A stretch of 40,673 bases of DNA from Escherichia phage KM02. Below the pieces are notes generated by a model, which saw only the letters and a program-made list of their open reading frames with translations, made no database searches and was not told the DNA's origin. Position numbers and translations under genes: made by a program. Where the stretch lies: the sequence record PQ179042. One strand, 5' to 3'. Below are positions 1 to 5,834 of this stretch, piece by piece (within the stretch, counting starts at the first letter, position 1; each line of letters opens with the position of its first letter).

Positions 1-1
1 T

Positions 2-177
2 TCTCACAGTTCAAGAACCTCAAGTCTCCCCATAGGCCCTCTTTCAGTCAGACCAAAGGCCCTACCCCAGTCTATCATAAGGTTGGACCGATGGTCAAGA
101 CTTCAGGTCAACGATAGGTAGAGGCTATGGCTTAGGGAAGGACGATAGGTTGGGACTATGGGTCTTCTTTGAGTCTC
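2..177. repeat. Left direct terminal repeat (176 bp), identical to 40498-40673
   Basis: Exact match of window start (from nt 2) to window end; nt 1 (t) does not match 40497 (a). T7 has a comparable 160-bp terminal redundancy. Confidence 0.95.
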
Positions 178-197
178 TATCTGTATAGTGTTATAGT
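169..197 (+). promoter_or_regulatory. Candidate host sigma70 early promoter (TTGAGT-17-TATAGT)
   Basis: -35-like ttgagt at 169-174, 17-nt spacer, -10 tatagt at 192-197; straddles the terminal repeat boundary. Confidence 0.4.
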
Positions 198-214
198 ATA
201 ACATTACGTCCTAC

Positions 215-298
215 ACCTACAGTCTCACTAACCTACAGTCTCACTAACCTACAGTCTCAACCATAAGACACCAACACCTACAGTCATAGACCTACAGT
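215..298. repeat. Array of five ACCTACAGT-core short repeats (two full 16-bp units ACCTACAGTCTCACTA) beginning 38 bp inside the left terminal repeat boundary
   Basis: Copies at 215, 231, 247, 276 and 290, read directly. Confidence 0.8.
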
Positions 299-334
299 TA
301 ATAGACACAAGGCTATAGACTTAAGGTCTAAGAC

Positions 335-550
335 ATGTTAGTCAAAGACTATATCCTCTTACACCATGGGGCCGACGATAGCTTAATCAATATTATTTCG
401 AATTACCTATTGACTATAGGTCCAGACTATGGCTTAATAGCTTCCGTCAACACGACACGGCAACAACCGGATAGTGAAGACGCCTGGTCATCCCGGTTAA
501 GTAGACAGCCTGATAAGTCATACGAACAACAGGCAGATGACAGAAAGTAG
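335..550 (+). CDS. Hypothetical early protein (weakly supported)
   Basis: 71-aa ORF in the track; only a weak aagg Shine-Dalgarno; lies upstream of the best host promoter candidate. Confidence 0.25.
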   Translation: MLVKDYILLHHGADDSLINIISNYLLTIGPDYGLIASVNTTRQQPDSEDAWSSRLSRQPDKSYEQQADDRK

Positions 551-580
551 TTGACAAGATGTACCGACTTAAAGTAGTAT
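551..580 (+). promoter_or_regulatory. Candidate host sigma70 early promoter (TTGACA-18-TAGTAT)
   Basis: Perfect -35 TTGACA at 551-556 and -10-like TAGTAT at 575-580, upstream of the early gene cluster, as for the T7 A promoters. Confidence 0.5.
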
Positions 581-708
581 GTACCACATCAACACGAAAC
601 AACGGTGACGACCAACACTAAAACGGTCTACCTGAAGTCCTCTGACTGAAGGGAATGTTCTTTAACAATCTGGATAAACTCTTAATGTGCGCCGATAGCG
701 ACTAACTA

Positions 709-740
709 CAGGGCCTTTGAGTCTACATCTGAAGGCCCTG
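709..740 (+). promoter_or_regulatory. Leader hairpin (9-bp stem cagggcctt/aaggccctg), candidate RNase III processing site
   Basis: Perfect inverted repeat 709-717 / 732-740, followed by a conserved block gactgatagtcactaact-aaagga that recurs at 1058-1080. Confidence 0.45.
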
Positions 741-763
741 ACTGATAGTCACTAACTTAAAGG

Positions 764-1018
764 ATGGACACTATGAAACACTTAAGCACAATCACTAATC
801 ACAATGAAGTATTCGTGAATACTAAAGGTTATGCGTGGATTCAACTTAAAGAGATGACAGGAGCGCGTCACCGTGTGGTAGTGCGCAAGGTCTCAAGCAA
901 GCCGTTCAGCAACTACAGCGTAGATACTGTGCGTATAGACAACGAGACCTACCTGATAGACTCGCAGATAACCGTGAGTCCTACAGCGGGCGTCTCAGCT
1001 CCTTATTTCGCTAACTGA
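764..1018 (+). CDS. Hypothetical early protein (gene 0.3 position; not Ocr-like in composition)
   Basis: ORF in track; SD aagga at 759-763 favours the internal ATG at 773 as the true start; not acidic like T7 Ocr. Confidence 0.5.
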   Translation: MDTMKHLSTITNHNEVFVNTKGYAWIQLKEMTGARHRVVVRKVSSKPFSNYSVDTVRIDNETYLIDSQITVSPTAGVSAPYFAN

Positions 1019-1032
1019 GAGTGATTAACTAC

Positions 1033-1057
1033 AGGTCGTTAGACTTATAGCGGCCTG
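1033..1057 (+). promoter_or_regulatory. Second leader hairpin (7-bp stem with one G-U pair), candidate RNase III site
   Basis: caggtcg 1033-1039 pairs with cggcctg 1051-1057; followed by the same conserved block plus SD as at 741-775. Confidence 0.4.
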
Positions 1058-1088
1058 ACTGATAGTCACTAACTAAAGGATAGACAAT

Positions 1089-1277
1089 ATGGCAGACCGT
1101 AAGCTGACCAAAGCAGAAGTGATAGCCGAATGTCGTGAAACTTTCCGCGAGTTCCCTGAGACTTTCAGAGGTGACGACATAGCAAAACAGCAGTATTGGA
1201 ATGATTACACAGACAGTCTCTGTAAGTCTGGCATGATTTACAACCACCAGTATAACACCTGGTCAAACCCATTCTAA
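1089..1277 (+). CDS. Hypothetical early protein
   Basis: 62-aa ORF with SD aagga 8 nt upstream inside the repeated leader block. Confidence 0.5.
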   Translation: MADRKLTKAEVIAECRETFREFPETFRGDDIAKQQYWNDYTDSLCKSGMIYNHQYNTWSNPF

Positions 1278-1293
1278 CGTAAGGAATATAACC

Positions 1294-1806
1294 ATGAAAC
1301 TGATAGGCAAAGGCGCGTTCACTAAGTGCTACCTGAAGGATTGCGGAAAGCGTGTACTTCTGGTCTCTTCAGACCCAATCAAGGAGTGCATGGCGTGGGG
1401 CTGGTTCCCTGAGTCGCCGCTGTTCCCTGAAGTCAAGATGATTGAGGTAGGCACGTATGAGATGGACTACATGCCACCAACACGAGGACTCAAGGCGCAT
1501 TTAGGTGACGACCAGTGGCAACTCTATCAGGTGCTGCGAGATTGCTTCTCACGGTCTCCGGTATTCTCTCAACCTGCTGACCTGTATCACAAGTGGTACG
1601 AGATATTCCAAGCTGCACACGACAGGTCTGAGACCGAGACTGTGCGGGAAGGTCTGATGGATGTACTGATGGCGCTGGACGCTTGCGCTAACTTTGGGTC
1701 TGACATTCAGTTTGAGATAAGCCCACGCAATGTACGGGCCGTTCACGGCAAGTTGATACTGGTGGACTGCTTCTTCCTTGTGTCCAAGCTGCAAGAGGTG
1801 AGGTAA
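1294..1806 (+). CDS. 0.7: Short Ser/Thr protein kinase, T7 gp0.7-like kinase domain only
   Basis: N-terminal KLIGKGAFTKCY resembles the glycine-rich loop KMLGNGHFSAAY recalled from T7 gp0.7; SD aagga present; 170 aa versus 359 aa in T7. Confidence 0.55.
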   Translation: MKLIGKGAFTKCYLKDCGKRVLLVSSDPIKECMAWGWFPESPLFPEVKMIEVGTYEMDYMPPTRGLKAHLGDDQWQLYQVLRDCFSRSPVFSQPADLYHKWYEIFQAAHDRSETETVREGLMDVLMALDACANFGSDIQFEISPRNVRAVHGKLILVDCFFLVSKLQEVR

Positions 1807-1811
1807 TCAAG

Positions 1812-1961
1812 ATGGTAACTTATGGTCTCTGCCAGCACCACGTCACCAACGCCCGGCTTATGGTCAAGACCGGGCAGTTAAACCACGATGCGACTATGCG
1901 CTATCTGAAAGCGGTCTACGAGGGCCGCAAGCGTATACACGACAGTTTACACGCTGAGTGA
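1812..1961 (+). CDS. Small hypothetical protein (49 aa)
   Basis: ATG at 1812 preceded by gaggtgagg; not in the ORF track because it is under 60 aa. Confidence 0.25.
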   Translation: MVTYGLCQHHVTNARLMVKTGQLNHDATMRYLKAVYEGRKRIHDSLHAE

Positions 1962-2028
1962 CAGACGATAGGTCATCTAACTGATAGGTGGCCTCAAAGA
2001 TTATCACTTAAATTGATAGGGGTTAACT

Positions 2029-2193
2029 ATGAAACTTACAGGCATCACACTTTACGTAACCATCATTCTGTCTTGGCTGACTGCGGTCATAGCTGATGGG
2101 AATGCACTACGCCTTGGTTGGCTGGCAGTTGATATCATATTCTCTCCGGTAGGGGTTGTGCGTGGCATCCTGATGTGGATTGGACTGGCGTGA
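2029..2193 (+). CDS. Small hydrophobic (membrane) protein, 54 aa
   Basis: ORF MKLTGITLYVTIILSWLTAVIADGNALRLGWLAVDIIFSPVGVVRGILMWIGLA read from sequence; weak SD. Confidence 0.3.
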   Translation: MKLTGITLYVTIILSWLTAVIADGNALRLGWLAVDIIFSPVGVVRGILMWIGLA

Positions 2194-2199
2194 TAAACT

Positions 2200-2400
2200 A
2201 TGAGTCTTGCACTATTGATAGCCATAGGCTATGGACTTATCGCCTACGTGCTGGTGAGAGACATCAACAAAGCGCGTAAAGTCTATAAATTCAACTATGT
2301 ACGTATGGTCCGCTGGACTGTACGTCAACCTAACGGACGATTCATGTGCAACCTCGCGAACGTCTGGGATATAGCAACTCTTGGGAGCAAACTACAATGA
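2200..2400 (+). CDS. Hypothetical protein (weak)
   Basis: 66-aa ORF in track; no clear SD; overlaps the next ORF. Confidence 0.2.
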   Translation: MSLALLIAIGYGLIAYVLVRDINKARKVYKFNYVRMVRWTVRQPNGRFMCNLANVWDIATLGSKLQ

Positions 2401-2723
2401 ACAAGTCATACGGGATTAATCTGGTACACTCTATGGACGCAGACATGCAAATGTTAAGCCTACTGGCTACCGGGTATCGTCACGGAACGTCAAGTCACAC
2501 CTCACGTCAACAGCAGGAGCGGGACCGTGTACTACAGGCACGACTCCGGGCAGAGGGCCATAAGTCCGAGCTGATGTGTCTGGCGTATGGTGGACGACCA
2601 ATCACCGACGATGGTAAACTTCTGGTCTCAGGCTGGAAGGCGATAGACCAACGGTCAACCATCAAGCACACGACTCACGGTGACTTCTGTCATCTTCATG
2701 CTAACCCTCTGATATGCAAGTAA
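2346..2723 (+). CDS. Hypothetical early protein (probable start at ATG 2397)
   Basis: 125-aa ORF; ggag lies 9 nt before the internal ATG at 2397. Confidence 0.35.
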   Translation: MQPRERLGYSNSWEQTTMNKSYGINLVHSMDADMQMLSLLATGYRHGTSSHTSRQQQERDRVLQARLRAEGHKSELMCLAYGGRPITDDGKLLVSGWKAIDQRSTIKHTTHGDFCHLHANPLICK

Positions 2724-2728
2724 TTATG

Positions 2729-2751
2729 ACTTAACTATCACTATAGGACTC
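2729..2751 (+). promoter_or_regulatory. Phage-RNAP promoter directly upstream of the RNAP gene
   Basis: cttaactatcactatagg at 2730-2747 matches the consensus of the ten other phage promoters in this genome. Confidence 0.6.
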
Positions 2752-2820
2752 AAGGTCTAAGACTCCAAGTGAAAGACCAAAGAGACTTTAAGTGAAAGAC
2801 TAATAACAAGGACTTTAAGT

Positions 2821-5502
2821 ATGAGCGTCATCTCTATTGAAAAACACGACTTCTCTGATGTGTCGAACGCCATTGAGCCGTTTAACCTGCTGGCTGACCA
2901 CTACGGGCAAGACCTTGCAGTCAAACAGCTTCAGCTTGAGCACGAGGCATACACTGAAGGCGAGCGACGTTTCATCAAGAACCTTGAGCGCCAGACTGAG
3001 CGCGGGGAACTGGCAGACAATCAGGTCGCCAAGCCTTTGATGCAGACTCTGGTCCCTAATATTGCGCAAGCCGTCAGGGAGTGGCATGAAGGGCCAGACG
3101 GGAAGCTGTCAACCTCTCGTCCTAGCGTAGCGTTCACCGTGTTGAGCACTGAAGAGAAGGCCGTCAAGGACCGCTCTATGCGCATCTCCTGTGAGTCTGC
3201 TGCGGTTATCATACTGAAGGTCATACTCTCCAAGCTGGTCAAGCCTGAAGGGATACCGATTACACCGATGGCCTCAGCGATAGGTCGCACACTTGAGGAC
3301 GAAATCCGCTTCGGTCGCATCCGTGACAAGGAGAAAGAGCACTTCAAGAAGGCGATAGCTGATAACCTGAATAAGCGGGCCGGGGCGTCCTACAAGAAAG
3401 CCTACATGCAAGCGGTCGAGGCATCCATGCTGGAGCAAGGCCAACTGGAAGATGCGTGGGGGACTTGGAGTCCGACCGAGGCTGTCCACGTTGGAATCAA
3501 GATGCTGGAGATTGTCATCCAGTCCACACAACTGGTCGAGCTTAAGCGTTACGGTGCTGGCAATGCAGCGGCTGACGTTGAGATGGTCCACCTGTCAGAC
3601 TTCTGGGTCAAGAAGATGGCACAACGAGGATTCAGCCTTGCGGGTATAGCTCCAGTCTACCAGCCTTGCGTCGTTCCACCTAAGCCGTGGACTGGTGTCG
3701 TAGGTGGTGGGTACTGGGCCAAAGGACGCAGACCATTACCACTGATTCGCTTAGGGTCTAAGTCTGCGGTAGCACGCTACGAAGACGTGTATATGCCTGA
3801 AGTCTATGACGCTGTGAACATCATTCAGAATACACCTTGGAAAGTGAACAAGAAGGTTCTGGAAGTGGTGAACATGGTCGAGAAGCTGAACAACACGCCT
3901 ATTGATGACATACCTCAGATGGAACCGCTGAAGCCTGAGGACTATGCGGGTGAGACTGAAGATGAACTCAAGGCATGGAAGAAGGCTGCTGCTGGTATCT
4001 ACCGCCGAGAGAAGGCACGGCAGTCACGCAGATTGTCACTGAGCTTTATCGTTAACCAAGCGAACAAGTTCTCTCAGTTCAAGGTCATATGGTTTCCGTA
4101 CAACATGGACTGGCGCGGTCGCGTCTACGCTGTGCCGATGTTCAACCCTCAAGGCAACGACATGCAGAAAGGTCTCCTTACTCTGGCAGTCGGCAAGCCT
4201 ATTGGCGCTGATGGTTTCAAGTGGCTGAAGGTCCATGGTGCAAACTGTGCGGGTGTCGATAAAGTCACCTTCGAGGAGCGCATCAAGTGGGTGGAAGACA
4301 ACCACGACAACATCATGGCTGCTGCTAAAGCACCGATGGACAGCATTGAGTGGTGGGGCAAGTTAGACTCTCCGTTCTGTTTCCTCGCGTTCTGCTTCGA
4401 GTATGCTGGCGTAATGCACCACGGCCTGTCTTACTCCTGCTCGCTGCCGATAGCGTTCGATGGGTCCTGCTCTGGTATTCAGCACTTCAGTGCGATGCTT
4501 CGTGACCACATCGGTGGACATGCAGTAAACCTGACGCCATCCGGTAAGGTACAAGACATCTACCGCATTGTGTCTGACCGCATTGAGGAGGAGCTTAAAG
4601 TCCTGCTGATTAACGGTACTGACAACGAGATGGGCACTCACGAGGATAAGAAAACTGGTGAGATTACCGAACGTATCAAGCTGGGGACACGAGAGCTGGC
4701 CCGTCAGTGGCTGACATACGGTATGTCACGCAAGGTCACTAAGCGTTCAGTCATGACTCTGGCCTACGGGTCGAAAGAGTATGGCTTCGCAGACCAAGTT
4801 TACGAGGACATCGTGATGCCAGCGATTGACTCAGGGTCTGGCGCTATGTTCACCGAGCCAAGCCAAGCGGCTCGCTTCATGGCTAATATGATTTGGGAAG
4901 CTGTGAGTGTGACCGTAGTTGCTGCGGTAGACGCTATGAAGTGGCTTCAGGGTGCCGCCAAGCTGCTGGCTGCTGAAGTGAAGGACAAGAAGACTGGAGA
5001 AATCCTGAAGCCTTGCCTTCCGGTACACTGGGTAACACCTGATGGTTTCCCGGTCTGGCAGGAATATCGCAAGAAGGATACCACTCGTCTGAACTTGATG
5101 TTCTTAGGGTCATTCAACCTTCAGCCTACCGTCAACAGGGGTACGAAGAAAGAGCTGGACAAGCACAAGCAGGAGTCAGGCATTAGCCCGAACTTCGTCC
5201 ACTCACAAGATGGTAGCCACCTACGCAAGACTGTAGTCCATACTCACCGCAAGTATGGCGTGATGTCGTTCGCAGTGATTCACGATAGCTTCGGGACCAT
5301 CCCGGCTGACGCTGAGTATCTGTTCCGTGGGGTCCGTGAGACTATGGTCGAGACCTACCTAGACAACGATGTGCTGCTTGACTTCTACGAGCAGTTTGAA
5401 TACCAGCTTCACGAGAGCCAGCGCGATAAGTTGCCAGAGCTTCCGAAGAAAGGTAAACTGAATATCGAAGACATCTTGTCTTCAGACTTTGCATTCGCTT
5501 AA
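2821..5502 (+). CDS. 1: DNA-directed RNA polymerase, single-subunit T7-type
   Basis: 893 aa; extensive identity to recalled T7 RNAP motifs (FSDV...PFN.LADHYG, WFPYNMDWRGRVYAV, HGANCAGVDK, ending DFAFA). Confidence 0.98.
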   Translation: MSVISIEKHDFSDVSNAIEPFNLLADHYGQDLAVKQLQLEHEAYTEGERRFIKNLERQTERGELADNQVAKPLMQTLVPNIAQAVREWHEGPDGKLSTSRPSVAFTVLSTEEKAVKDRSMRISCESAAVIILKVILSKLVKPEGIPITPMASAIGRTLEDEIRFGRIRDKEKEHFKKAIADNLNKRAGASYKKAYMQAVEASMLEQGQLEDAWGTWSPTEAVHVGIKMLEIVIQSTQLVELKRYGAGNAAADVEMVHLSDFWVKKMAQRGFSLAGIAPVYQPCVVPPKPWTGVVGGGYWAKGRRPLPLIRLGSKSAVARYEDVYMPEVYDAVNIIQNTPWKVNKKVLEVVNMVEKLNNTPIDDIPQMEPLKPEDYAGETEDELKAWKKAAAGIYRREKARQSRRLSLSFIVNQANKFSQFKVIWFPYNMDWRGRVYAVPMFNPQGNDMQKGLLTLAVGKPIGADGFKWLKVHGANCAGVDKVTFEERIKWVEDNHDNIMAAAKAPMDSIEWWGKLDSPFCFLAFCFEYAGVMHHGLSYSCSLPIAFDGSCSGIQHFSAMLRDHIGGHAVNLTPSGKVQDIYRIVSDRIEEELKVLLINGTDNEMGTHEDKKTGEITERIKLGTRELARQWLTYGMSRKVTKRSVMTLAYGSKEYGFADQVYEDIVMPAIDSGSGAMFTEPSQAARFMANMIWEAVSVTVVAAVDAMKWLQGAAKLLAAEVKDKKTGEILKPCLPVHWVTPDGFPVWQEYRKKDTTRLNLMFLGSFNLQPTVNRGTKKELDKHKQESGISPNFVHSQDGSHLRKTVVHTHRKYGVMSFAVIHDSFGTIPADAEYLFRGVRETMVETYLDNDVLLDFYEQFEYQLHESQRDKLPELPKKGKLNIEDILSSDFAFA

Positions 5503-5811: not shown

Positions 5812-5834
5812 CCTAAACTATCACTATAGGATTA
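5812..5834 (+). promoter_or_regulatory. Phage-RNAP promoter (T7 phi1.1 analogue)
   Basis: ctaaactatcactatagg at 5813-5830. Confidence 0.75.

Follow-up and report, generated by a model that had tools for sequence, protein, structure and literature searches.

The early region of Escherichia phage KM02 encodes a predicted minimal protein-kinase-like protein in the genomic slot of Ocr

RESULTS

Gene content of the KM02 early region

We analyzed positions 335-2723 of Escherichia phage KM02 (PQ179042), a row of small open reading frames (ORFs) in front of the gene for the single-subunit RNA polymerase (RNAP). The whole stretch of 40,673 bases, called the window here, comes from a Kayfunavirus (K1F-like; Autographiviridae, Studiervirinae) and is a complete or nearly complete genome. 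Lying 5' of the RNAP gene, 335-2723 is the class I (early), host-RNAP-transcribed region of this T7-family phage. Taken as a whole, we consider it likely that this is a Kayfunavirus class I region encoding seven proteins, in which the ORF3-ORF4 pair occupies the slot of the T7 protein Ocr and ORF4 would act as a kinase. The first 2.8 kb of the window matched 387 phage records, with Escherichia phage SD6 at the top (93% identity over 94% of the query), and the first 25 kb was 93% identical to SD6, Vec13, and YZ1, no record being identical.

Eight plus-strand ORFs were found between the left end and gene 1 after their starts had been adjusted to ribosome-binding sites and homologs (Table 1). Each was aligned to eight related genomes, and the substitutions were tallied at codon positions 1, 2, and 3, with the 5' end of the RNAP gene for comparison. 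ORF2 to ORF8 showed a third-position excess, indicating that they are coding and that the region holds seven real genes. ORF1 showed no such excess and had frame-breaking gaps in two relatives, and its equivalent in CR44b is annotated as a pseudogene with an internal stop at residue 22. Since it has no codon bias, overlaps a promoter, and is a pseudogene in CR44b, we do not regard ORF1 as a gene; most likely, 335-550 is conserved promoter DNA. The alternative, that ORF1 encodes an eighth early protein (K1F gp0.1, PHROG 30192), draws on a frame that is open, a protein that is 88 to 97% identical in most relatives, a match to PHROG 30192 at an E value of 2e-49, and coding sequences annotated in K1F and Penshu1. 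This seems quite improbable, however, given the unbiased codon positions (22/19/15), the indels, and the internal stop, the A1-like promoter within ORF1, from which the main early transcripts would begin 3' of the ORF1 ATG, and the conservation of part of its sequence as noncoding DNA in T7 and T3, which have no gene there.

None of the eight ORFs matched a profile in scans of Pfam, NCBIfam, and PADLOC (0/8), and the PHROG families that they all matched are, without exception, annotated as "unknown function." Comparing ORF2, ORF3, and ORF8 with PDB sequences returned chance-level matches only. All ORFs were also compared with T7 gp0.3, 0.4, 0.5, 0.6A, and 0.7 and T3 gp0.3, 0.6, 0.65, and 0.7, taken from reference records, and no early ORF resembled Ocr, T3 SAMase, or T7 gp0.6A. 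The isoelectric points (pI) of the seven real products range from 5.2 to 10.4. An earlier note on this DNA, made from the letters alone, had counted seven or eight ORFs before the RNAP gene; eight is right for ORFs and seven for genes. It had called the proteins uncharacterized, which agrees with the empty profile scans, the PHROG annotations, and the lack of significant PDB sequence matches, and it had described the protein at the gene 0.3 position as not acidic like Ocr, which fits the pI of ORF2 (9.45) and a tblastn search in which K1F Ocr scored 47 to 100% in 12 relatives and had no homolog in the first 3.5 kb of the KM02 window. The profile and structure searches that it had proposed gave no Pfam, NCBIfam, or PADLOC match for any ORF and a kinase-like fold for the model of ORF4.

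Table 1. Features of the KM02 early region, with substitutions at codon positions 1/2/3 and occurrence among 19 Kayfunavirus genomes
Feature	Position	Strand	Substitutions 1/2/3	Genomes (of 19)	Description
ORF1	335-550	+	22/19/15		71 codons; K1F "gp0.1"
Host sigma-70 promoter	409-437	+			T7 A1 equivalent; -35 TTGACT 409-414, 17 nucleotides, -10 CTTAAT 432-437
Host sigma-70 promoter	551-580	+			T7 A2 equivalent; TTGACA, 18 nucleotides, TAGTAT
RNase III-type hairpin 1	696-754	+			Internal loop; T7/T3 R0.3 equivalent, aligns with T7/T3 R0.3; fold z-score -3.0
ORF2	773-1018	+	12/8/24	7	81 amino acids, pI 9.45, predicted all-beta; first gene expressed
RNase III-type hairpin 2	1020-1070	+			Fold z-score -3.7; 3' half and ribosome-binding site repeat the ORF2 leader
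ORF3	1089-1277	+	15/8/46	6	62 amino acids, acidic, C terminus W/Y-rich; PHROG 336
ORF4	1294-1806	+	22/24/141	7	170 amino acids, pI 5.8; predicted minimal protein-kinase-like fold, in Ocr slot
ORF5	1812-1961	+	38/17/62	19	49 amino acids; K1F gp0.35, CR44b "0.4"
RNase III-type hairpin 3	1955-2010	+			Between ORF3-4-5 and ORF6-7-8; fold z-score -2.85
ORF6	2029-2193	+	26/7/48	8	54 amino acids; PHROG 7319; two hydrophobic segments
ORF7	2200-2400	+	38/12/50	18	66 amino acids; predicted T3 gp0.6 family, PHROG 2385
ORF8	2397-2723	+	40/10/89	19	108 amino acids, basic; K1F gp0.38; ATGA overlap with ORF7; last before gene 1
Phage-RNAP promoter	2729-2751	+			Directly 5' of RNAP gene; 100% identity to EcoDS1 annotated "phi" promoter
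RNAP gene	2821-5502		24/15/182 (5' end)		Single-subunit RNA polymerase

A minimal protein-kinase-like fold predicted for ORF4

ORF4 belongs to a family of 115 clusters whose members are about 153 to 202 amino acids long, apart from two fragments. They are found in Kayfunavirus, Klebsiella Molineuxvirinae, Dickeya Aarhusvirus, Seuratvirus, and Ralstonia and Cellulophaga phages and in Pseudomonas phages of about 99 kb, and some records of the Dickeya Aarhusvirus homologs are annotated as "serine/threonine kinase." In every context examined, the ORF4 homologs lie within arrays of small unannotated ORFs, and these arrays are just 5' of the RNAP gene in two Autographiviridae contexts.

An alignment of 56 homologs (33 to 84% identity) showed where the family is conserved. 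The N-terminal segment IGKGAFTKxY reads as a glycine-rich loop of the GxGxF/Y type (I-G5-K-G7-A-F9-T), with G5 and G7 invariant and F9 kept in 54/56. The segment E141-x-S143-P144-R145-N146 (ExSPRN), in the position of the catalytic loop, is invariant in all 56, as is D158 in LLD[C/V]FF (D158-[C/V]-F160, a D-x-F motif). N146 and D158 stand at the canonical kinase spacing, and the invariant Glu, E141, takes the position of the catalytic Asp. At the start of helix C, K30 is present in 55/56 and E31 in 54/56.

The AlphaFold2 model built from the 56-sequence alignment had a predicted local distance difference test score (pLDDT) of 97.1 and a predicted template modeling score (pTM) of 0.91. Its N-terminal part has five strands and a single helix; three long helices come next, and strand pairs bearing ExSPRN and D-x-F follow. 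The model thus contains the five-stranded N-lobe with helix C, the catalytic-loop strand pair, and the metal-binding loop that define the protein-kinase-like (PKL) fold. The chain stops 12 residues past D-x-F, leaving no activation loop, C-lobe, or shutoff domain. A Foldseek search of BFVD with this model returned the ORF4 family first and kinases of the T7 gp0.7 (T7K) type among the next few (E values of 1e-5 to 1e-4, probability 1.00); these neighbors included the kinase of Klebsiella phage NahiliMali and A0A7L7SMK1, a T7K homolog listed in PMC13645617.

Sequence comparisons with kinases gave faint signals that fell on the same motifs. A weak PDB profile match to CK2 (E value of 0.61) placed HRDVKPRN...LID on FEISPRN...LLD, and an hhalign comparison with a 25-member T7K alignment (probability 8.9%, E value of 0.004) placed the glycine-rich loops on each other, FDMHSGN on FEISPRN, and ITDPV on LLDCF. 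Pfam PF27024, which is present in every T7K homolog, was not found in ORF4 even at E values up to 1, nor was PHROG 2828, and BLASTP against gp0.7 gave an E value of 0.56. The DPV motif that T7K conserves instead of DFG (PMC13645617) is absent, D158-[C/V]-F160 standing in its place, and no basic C-terminal shutoff or DNA-binding domain follows the kinase domain. As modeled, then, ORF4 is predicted to be a minimal PKL-fold protein composed of an N-lobe, a helical insert, a catalytic loop, and a D-x-F motif. Structurally, it would be distantly related to T7K, and by sequence it lies outside the gp0.7 family.

Ocr and ORF3-ORF4 alternate in one slot

Ocr, the gp0.3 of T7 and K1F, is a DNA mimic that inhibits type I restriction and BREX. 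We compared 19 Kayfunavirus early regions, including that of KM02, using each ORF, K1F Ocr, and T7K as tblastn queries. ORF5, ORF7, and ORF8 make up the conserved Kayfunavirus early core, and ORF2, ORF3-ORF4, and ORF6 behave as swappable accessory cassettes (Table 1). Ocr was found in 12 genomes and a T7-type kinase in 0. The slot directly 5' of the gp0.4-like gene held either Ocr or ORF4 in 19/19, never both and never neither. Within Kayfunavirus, ORF3 was restricted to the genomes with ORF4 (6/7, against 0/12 of those with Ocr), and ORF2 was paired with either Ocr or ORF4. The early region of KM02 has neither Ocr nor a T7-type gp0.7 kinase/shutoff protein.

We regard ORF3 as a partner gene of ORF4 in enterobacterial Autographiviridae. 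The two genes are neighbors in Klebsiella phage VLCpiA2a too, a member of a different subfamily (72% identity for ORF3 and 59% for ORF4). ORF3 did not adjoin the ORF4 homologs of Mysterion, Seurat, and three metagenomic phages. We rejected the notion that ORF3 is an obligate partner of ORF4 in all phages, as ORF4 homologs without ORF3 and cyanophage ORF3 without ORF4 both exist. Homologs of ORF3 with 34 to 47% identity occur in more than 230 records of T4-like and T7-like cyanophages (Synechococcus and Prochlorococcus), where ORF4 is not found. This host range is unusually wide for a small early protein.

Some database labels in this slot were checked along the way. The K1F "gp0.3 putative ocr" was considered as a misnamed ORF4 homolog and turned out to be a true Ocr homolog, K1F having no ORF4. 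The Vec13 "protein kinase" was considered as a truncated T7K; its product is Ocr. The GenBank name of that gene (Vec13_03, 1610-1942 in MH400309) is therefore wrong, the protein being a clear Ocr homolog that RefSeq calls ocr-like. The record KX689784.2, "Escherichia phage JSS1," has an early region with Ocr and without a T7K-like gene, and looks unlike the JSS1 that carries the JSS1_004 kinase (PMC12345140), although KX689784 is cited for JSS1 in PMC13522605.

ORF5, a candidate FtsZ inhibitor

T7 gp0.4 inhibits FtsZ and is also a trigger of CapRel-Ebc. ORF5 aligned with T7 gp0.4 over 41/49 residues at 39% identity (pairwise E value of 6e-6), and their PHROG cross-matches were reciprocal, ORF5 reaching families 5058, 25044, and 7202 (E value of 3e-4) and gp0.4 reaching families 7202, 25044, and 5058 (E value of 9e-5). 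The signal is weak but consistent, and the conserved position next to the 0.3 slot supports it, suggesting that ORF5 is a remote homolog of gp0.4.

FtsZ inhibition by T7 gp0.4 requires V15, V22, W28, M32, L35, and Y39 (PMC13423816, 2026), and ORF5 keeps all of these except W28 (5/6). The contact interface with CapRel-Ebc consists of A12, T14, L16, S19, and R23, and K36 is also needed for activation (PMC13423816). ORF5 differs at 5/5 of the contact residues, R23 being conservatively replaced by Lys, and keeps K36. By these residues, ORF5 appears to retain the FtsZ-binding face of gp0.4 and not the face that is sensed by CapRel-Ebc. K1F infection mislocalizes FtsZ and blocks division, with the responsible gene not assigned (PMC9372555), and K1F gp0.35 is 80% identical to ORF5. 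ORF5 is a probable FtsZ inhibitor and host-takeover factor.

ORF2, ORF6, ORF7, and ORF8

ORF7 and T3 gp0.6 shared 40% identity (E value of 2e-10) and matched the same family, PHROG 2385 (E values of 2e-31 and 9e-30, respectively). ORF7 has a transmembrane segment at residues 1-22, and its N-terminal helix is followed by a basic tail with R-x-TVR-x-x-NGRF, as in T3 gp0.6. These similarities place it, as a predicted member, in the T3 gp0.6 family; the homolog in EcoDS1 is already named gp0.6. ORF6 is a small protein with two hydrophobic stretches (about residues 3-24 and 32-53). T7 gp0.5 was its best match in a comparison with gp0.5 and gp0.6A, and the E value of 0.1 reflected hydrophobic composition only, the PHROG families being different; we take ORF6 for an analog, not a homolog, of gp0.5.

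ORF8 is restricted to the Kayfunavirus lineage: a search of 1.84 billion representative proteins yielded only 12 clusters (50% identity). Its conserved core reads ERD..VL...AYGG.P...DGKLL...HT..GDF.HL, and its cysteines are not conserved, for which reason a zinc-binding or HNH-like function suggested by the Cys/His-rich C terminus was rejected. No other gene lies between ORF8 and gene 1, a position held by gp0.7 in T7. A remnant of the gp0.7 shutoff domain was considered and discarded, the BLAST match being at chance level (E value of 0.5) and the GDF motif not being found in T3 gp0.7. ORF2, with at least 70% identity in different phage groups, is a mobile accessory gene.

Promoters, hairpins, and the left end

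The host promoter at 409-437 aligned with the A1 promoter of T7 and T3 and was 96% identical to the first "host RNAP promoter" annotated in EcoDS1. That at 551-580 matched 10/12 consensus positions in a consensus scan, mapped onto the second annotated EcoDS1 host promoter (94% identity), and had, just 5' of TTGACA, a block conserved with the region upstream of T7/T3 A2. An A3-type third host promoter was sought and rejected, the third EcoDS1 promoter having no counterpart in the window.

With the phage-RNAP promoter at 2729-2751, the region transcribed by the host RNAP alone comes to an end. The consensus of this promoter, ACTATCACTATAGGA, had about 11 plus-strand occurrences in the window against 1.25 expected. 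As this first phage promoter adjoins the RNAP gene, the polymerase can drive its own expression in a feed-forward manner. KM02 and EcoDS1 share this arrangement, whereas T7 and T3 have no phage promoter directly 5' of the RNAP gene. More copies of the consensus (ACTTAACTATCACTATAGGA/G) lie near 5817, 7745, 8710, 17891, 21109, 22096, 27159, 34625, and 39902.

The three hairpins folded better than shuffled controls and, with their interrupted stems, are shaped like T7 RNase III sites. They probably allow RNase III to cut the early transcript into ORF2, ORF3-ORF4-ORF5, and ORF6-ORF7-ORF8 segments. No Rfam family matched positions 1-3000 of the window at E values up to 1. The 3' halves of hairpins 1 and 2, with the ribosome-binding sites of ORF2 and ORF3, form a direct repeat of 24 nucleotides (737-760 and 1054-1077) that is identical at 23/24 positions (96%). 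This leader repeat could plausibly serve as a joint for recombination when cassettes are exchanged and would explain the shuffling of ORF2, Ocr, and ORF3-ORF4 in Kayfunavirus.

In the noncoding left end, a 16-nucleotide unit (ACCTACAGTCTCACTA) occurs in three tandem copies at 215-262, and other repeats containing PyCTACAGT continue to about 300. The repeats at 215-300 resemble the arrays that adjoin the T7 terminal repeat and concatemer junction. No second copy of the left-end sequence, where relatives have a terminal repeat of about 165 to 195 bp, was found at the right end of the window; the deposited record probably includes just one copy of the direct terminal repeat.

DISCUSSION

A working account of the KM02 early region can be put together from these results. 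Once the genome end enters the cell, the host RNAP would start at 409-437 and 551-580, and the transcript would be cut at the three hairpins into pieces for ORF2, ORF3-4-5, and ORF6-7-8, followed by the phage RNAP gene. ORF5, a gp0.4-type two-helix peptide, would bind FtsZ and block host division, ORF7 would be a single-pass membrane protein of the T3 gp0.6 type, and ORF8 would add a basic protein specific to the lineage. ORF4 may bind ATP and phosphorylate a host target early in infection, as a counterdefense or takeover alternative to Ocr, with ORF3 as its partner or specificity factor. The strongest hint at a counterdefense role of ORF3-ORF4 is that the pair alternates with ocr, and it is from this position that we infer the role. 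A more specific version, in which ORF3-ORF4 is a two-gene counterdefense cassette that replaces Ocr and ORF4 is a noncanonical kinase (with Glu as the base), possibly guided by ORF3, that disables type I restriction-modification, BREX, or another early-acting defense by phosphorylation, is possible, and we offer it tentatively.

Several observations weigh against this account. The exclusivity of Ocr and ORF4 comes from close relatives, so that the 19 genomes are not phylogenetically independent. In the early region of Dickeya phage Mysterion, an ORF4-like gene (1057-1590) occurs along with a gene for a T7K-type kinase (1910-2968), indicating that the two kinds of kinase are not simply redundant or interchangeable. 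Position 24 of ORF4, that of the beta3 lysine, is Lys in 21/56 homologs and Val in KM02, so no conserved lysine stands there, and with Glu in place of the catalytic Asp, the protein could be a pseudokinase or act on a nonprotein substrate. Depletion of Ser/Thr/Tyr in early proteins is a signature reported for phages with the hyperpromiscuous T7K. In KM02, the Ser/Thr/Tyr fraction is 0.161 in early proteins and 0.158 in the rest (0.121 in T7 early proteins); the sample is small and the comparison weak, and this lack of depletion argues against a hyperpromiscuous protein kinase like T7K. In addition, W28, essential in T7 gp0.4, is His in ORF5, and RNase III cleavage is proposed from RNA structure.

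The features of ORF4 that depart from canonical kinases could mean that it is an inactive pseudokinase, serving as a nucleotide-binding scaffold or as a decoy that sequesters a host protein such as a defense sensor. The unconserved beta3 lysine, the Glu at the catalytic Asp, the loss of the C-lobe and activation loop, and the undepleted Ser/Thr/Tyr of the early proteins would all suit this reading. We regard it as unlikely, however, because E141, S143, P144, R145, N146, D158, and the glycines of the glycine-rich loop are 100% invariant down to 33% identity, as is usual for an active site constrained by catalysis, and because the near-invariant K30/E31 could stand in for the beta3 lysine. WNK-type kinases offer a parallel for such a replacement, and HopBF1 and NleH are examples of minimal kinases with activity. 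The invariance of the catalytic-loop and metal-binding residues thus argues for a catalytically active ORF4. Its substrate might instead be a small molecule (a nucleotide, signaling molecule, antibiotic-like compound, or lipopolysaccharide precursor), in the manner of aminoglycoside phosphotransferase (APH) or choline kinase (ChoK). The missing beta3 lysine and the Glu at the catalytic position leave room for such a substrate, but we think it unlikely, as the nearest annotated viral structural neighbors outside the ORF4 family are protein kinases of the T7K type and the APH/ChoK pocket is formed by a large helical C-lobe that ORF4 does not have.

The alternation in the Ocr slot could also arise with no function behind it, if ORF2, ORF3, ORF4, and ORF6 were selfish or neutral passengers and Ocr and ORF4 were exchanged by recombination at shared leaders. 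Repeated leader and hairpin sequences do flank the cassettes and could drive such shuffling, and no defense-related profile matches these ORFs. This is very unlikely, in our view, given the strong purifying selection on these genes (22/24/141 for ORF4), the identity of at least 70% for ORF2 between different phage groups, the invariance of the ORF4 motifs in very diverse phages, and the place of all four in the first-expressed transcript of a size-constrained 40-kb genome.

These results change the picture given by the earlier note in several ways. Its "kinase" stands at the level of the fold of ORF4 and falls at that of sequence-detectable gp0.7 homology. Its statement that none of the other early proteins resembles T7 gp0.3-0.6 holds only in part, as ORF5 resembles T7 gp0.4 (39%) and ORF7 shares a PHROG family with T3 gp0.6 (40%). 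What it took for a region of candidate host-takeover or anti-defense genes is an early, host-transcribed mosaic with a probable takeover gene in ORF5, a probable atypical kinase in ORF4, and, in ORF3-ORF4, a candidate counterdefense cassette. Lineage-specific novelty was borne out insofar as gene content varies among the 19 Kayfunavirus genomes, and was overstated for the two "novel" ORFs that have T7/T3 homologs. The region is not unique, for every ORF has a homolog of at least 95% identity in GenBank phages; it is lineage-typical and, as a whole, an ordinary region matching the published Kayfunavirus genomes K1F, EcoDS1, CR44b, and SH4 (PMC4925675).

Anti-restriction and host-shutoff functions were first discovered in the early regions of T7-family phages. 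ORF4 escapes the kinase labels of Pfam, NCBIfam, PADLOC, and PHROGs, and PHROG 2828 was the base of the published search for T7K homologs. The minimal kinase fold of ORF4, the alternation of ORF3-ORF4 with ocr, and the split between the FtsZ and CapRel-Ebc faces of ORF5 were not found described in the literature searched. Should ORF4 prove to be an active counterdefense enzyme, it would widen the phage kinase repertoire, offer, at 170 residues, a compact model for the catalysis of a minimal kinase, and represent a second, sequence-unrelated class of anti-defense kinases in Autographiviridae, Seuratvirus, Pseudomonas myoviruses, and marine phages. The alternation of Ocr and ORF3-ORF4 would then be a natural experiment on the defenses that each overcomes, which would be relevant to the choice of K1F-like therapeutic phages, and the face split of ORF5 makes it a case in which immune evasion can be tested. 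Should all of this fail, what is left is a Kayfunavirus early region of the usual kind, one that has been sequenced before.

Comparison with known systems

T7K and its homolog JSS1_004 are broad anti-defense kinases (PMC13645617, PMC12345140). Like ORF4, they are Autographiviridae early genes located 5' of the RNAP gene, and all share a kinase-like fold. FDMHSGN of T7K (PF27024, PHROG 2828) and FEISPRN of ORF4 are in register, with an Asp-containing motif following 12-13 residues past the Asn. T7K is about 360 amino acids long and has an N-terminal helical extension and a C-terminal DNA-binding shutoff domain, whereas ORF4 has 170 amino acids and neither of these. T7K also has DPV and a catalytic Asp and sits in the 0.7 slot, whereas ORF4 has D-C-F, a Glu, and no conserved beta3 lysine and sits in the 0.3 slot. 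With HopBF1 and NleH, the sequence identity of ORF4 is only 7 to 15%. Those two, type III secretion effectors whose targets are eukaryotic hosts, retain the canonical lysine.

Ocr and ORF3-ORF4 share a genomic slot and have no likeness in sequence or composition. T7 gp0.4 and ORF5 are of the same size and follow the 0.3 slot in the same position, and their different PHROG families are linked by cross-matches. The early regions of K1F, EcoDS1, SH4, GA2A, and SD6 have promoters, hairpins, and a gene order like those of KM02, and SH4 carries the same set of ORF3-ORF4-ORF5-ORF6-ORF7-ORF8 (PMC4925675). KM02 joins ORF2, as found in K1F and Vec13, to the ORF3-ORF4 pair, as found in SH4; among the genomes compared, only SD6 and CtuP_B1 do likewise, both without ORF6.

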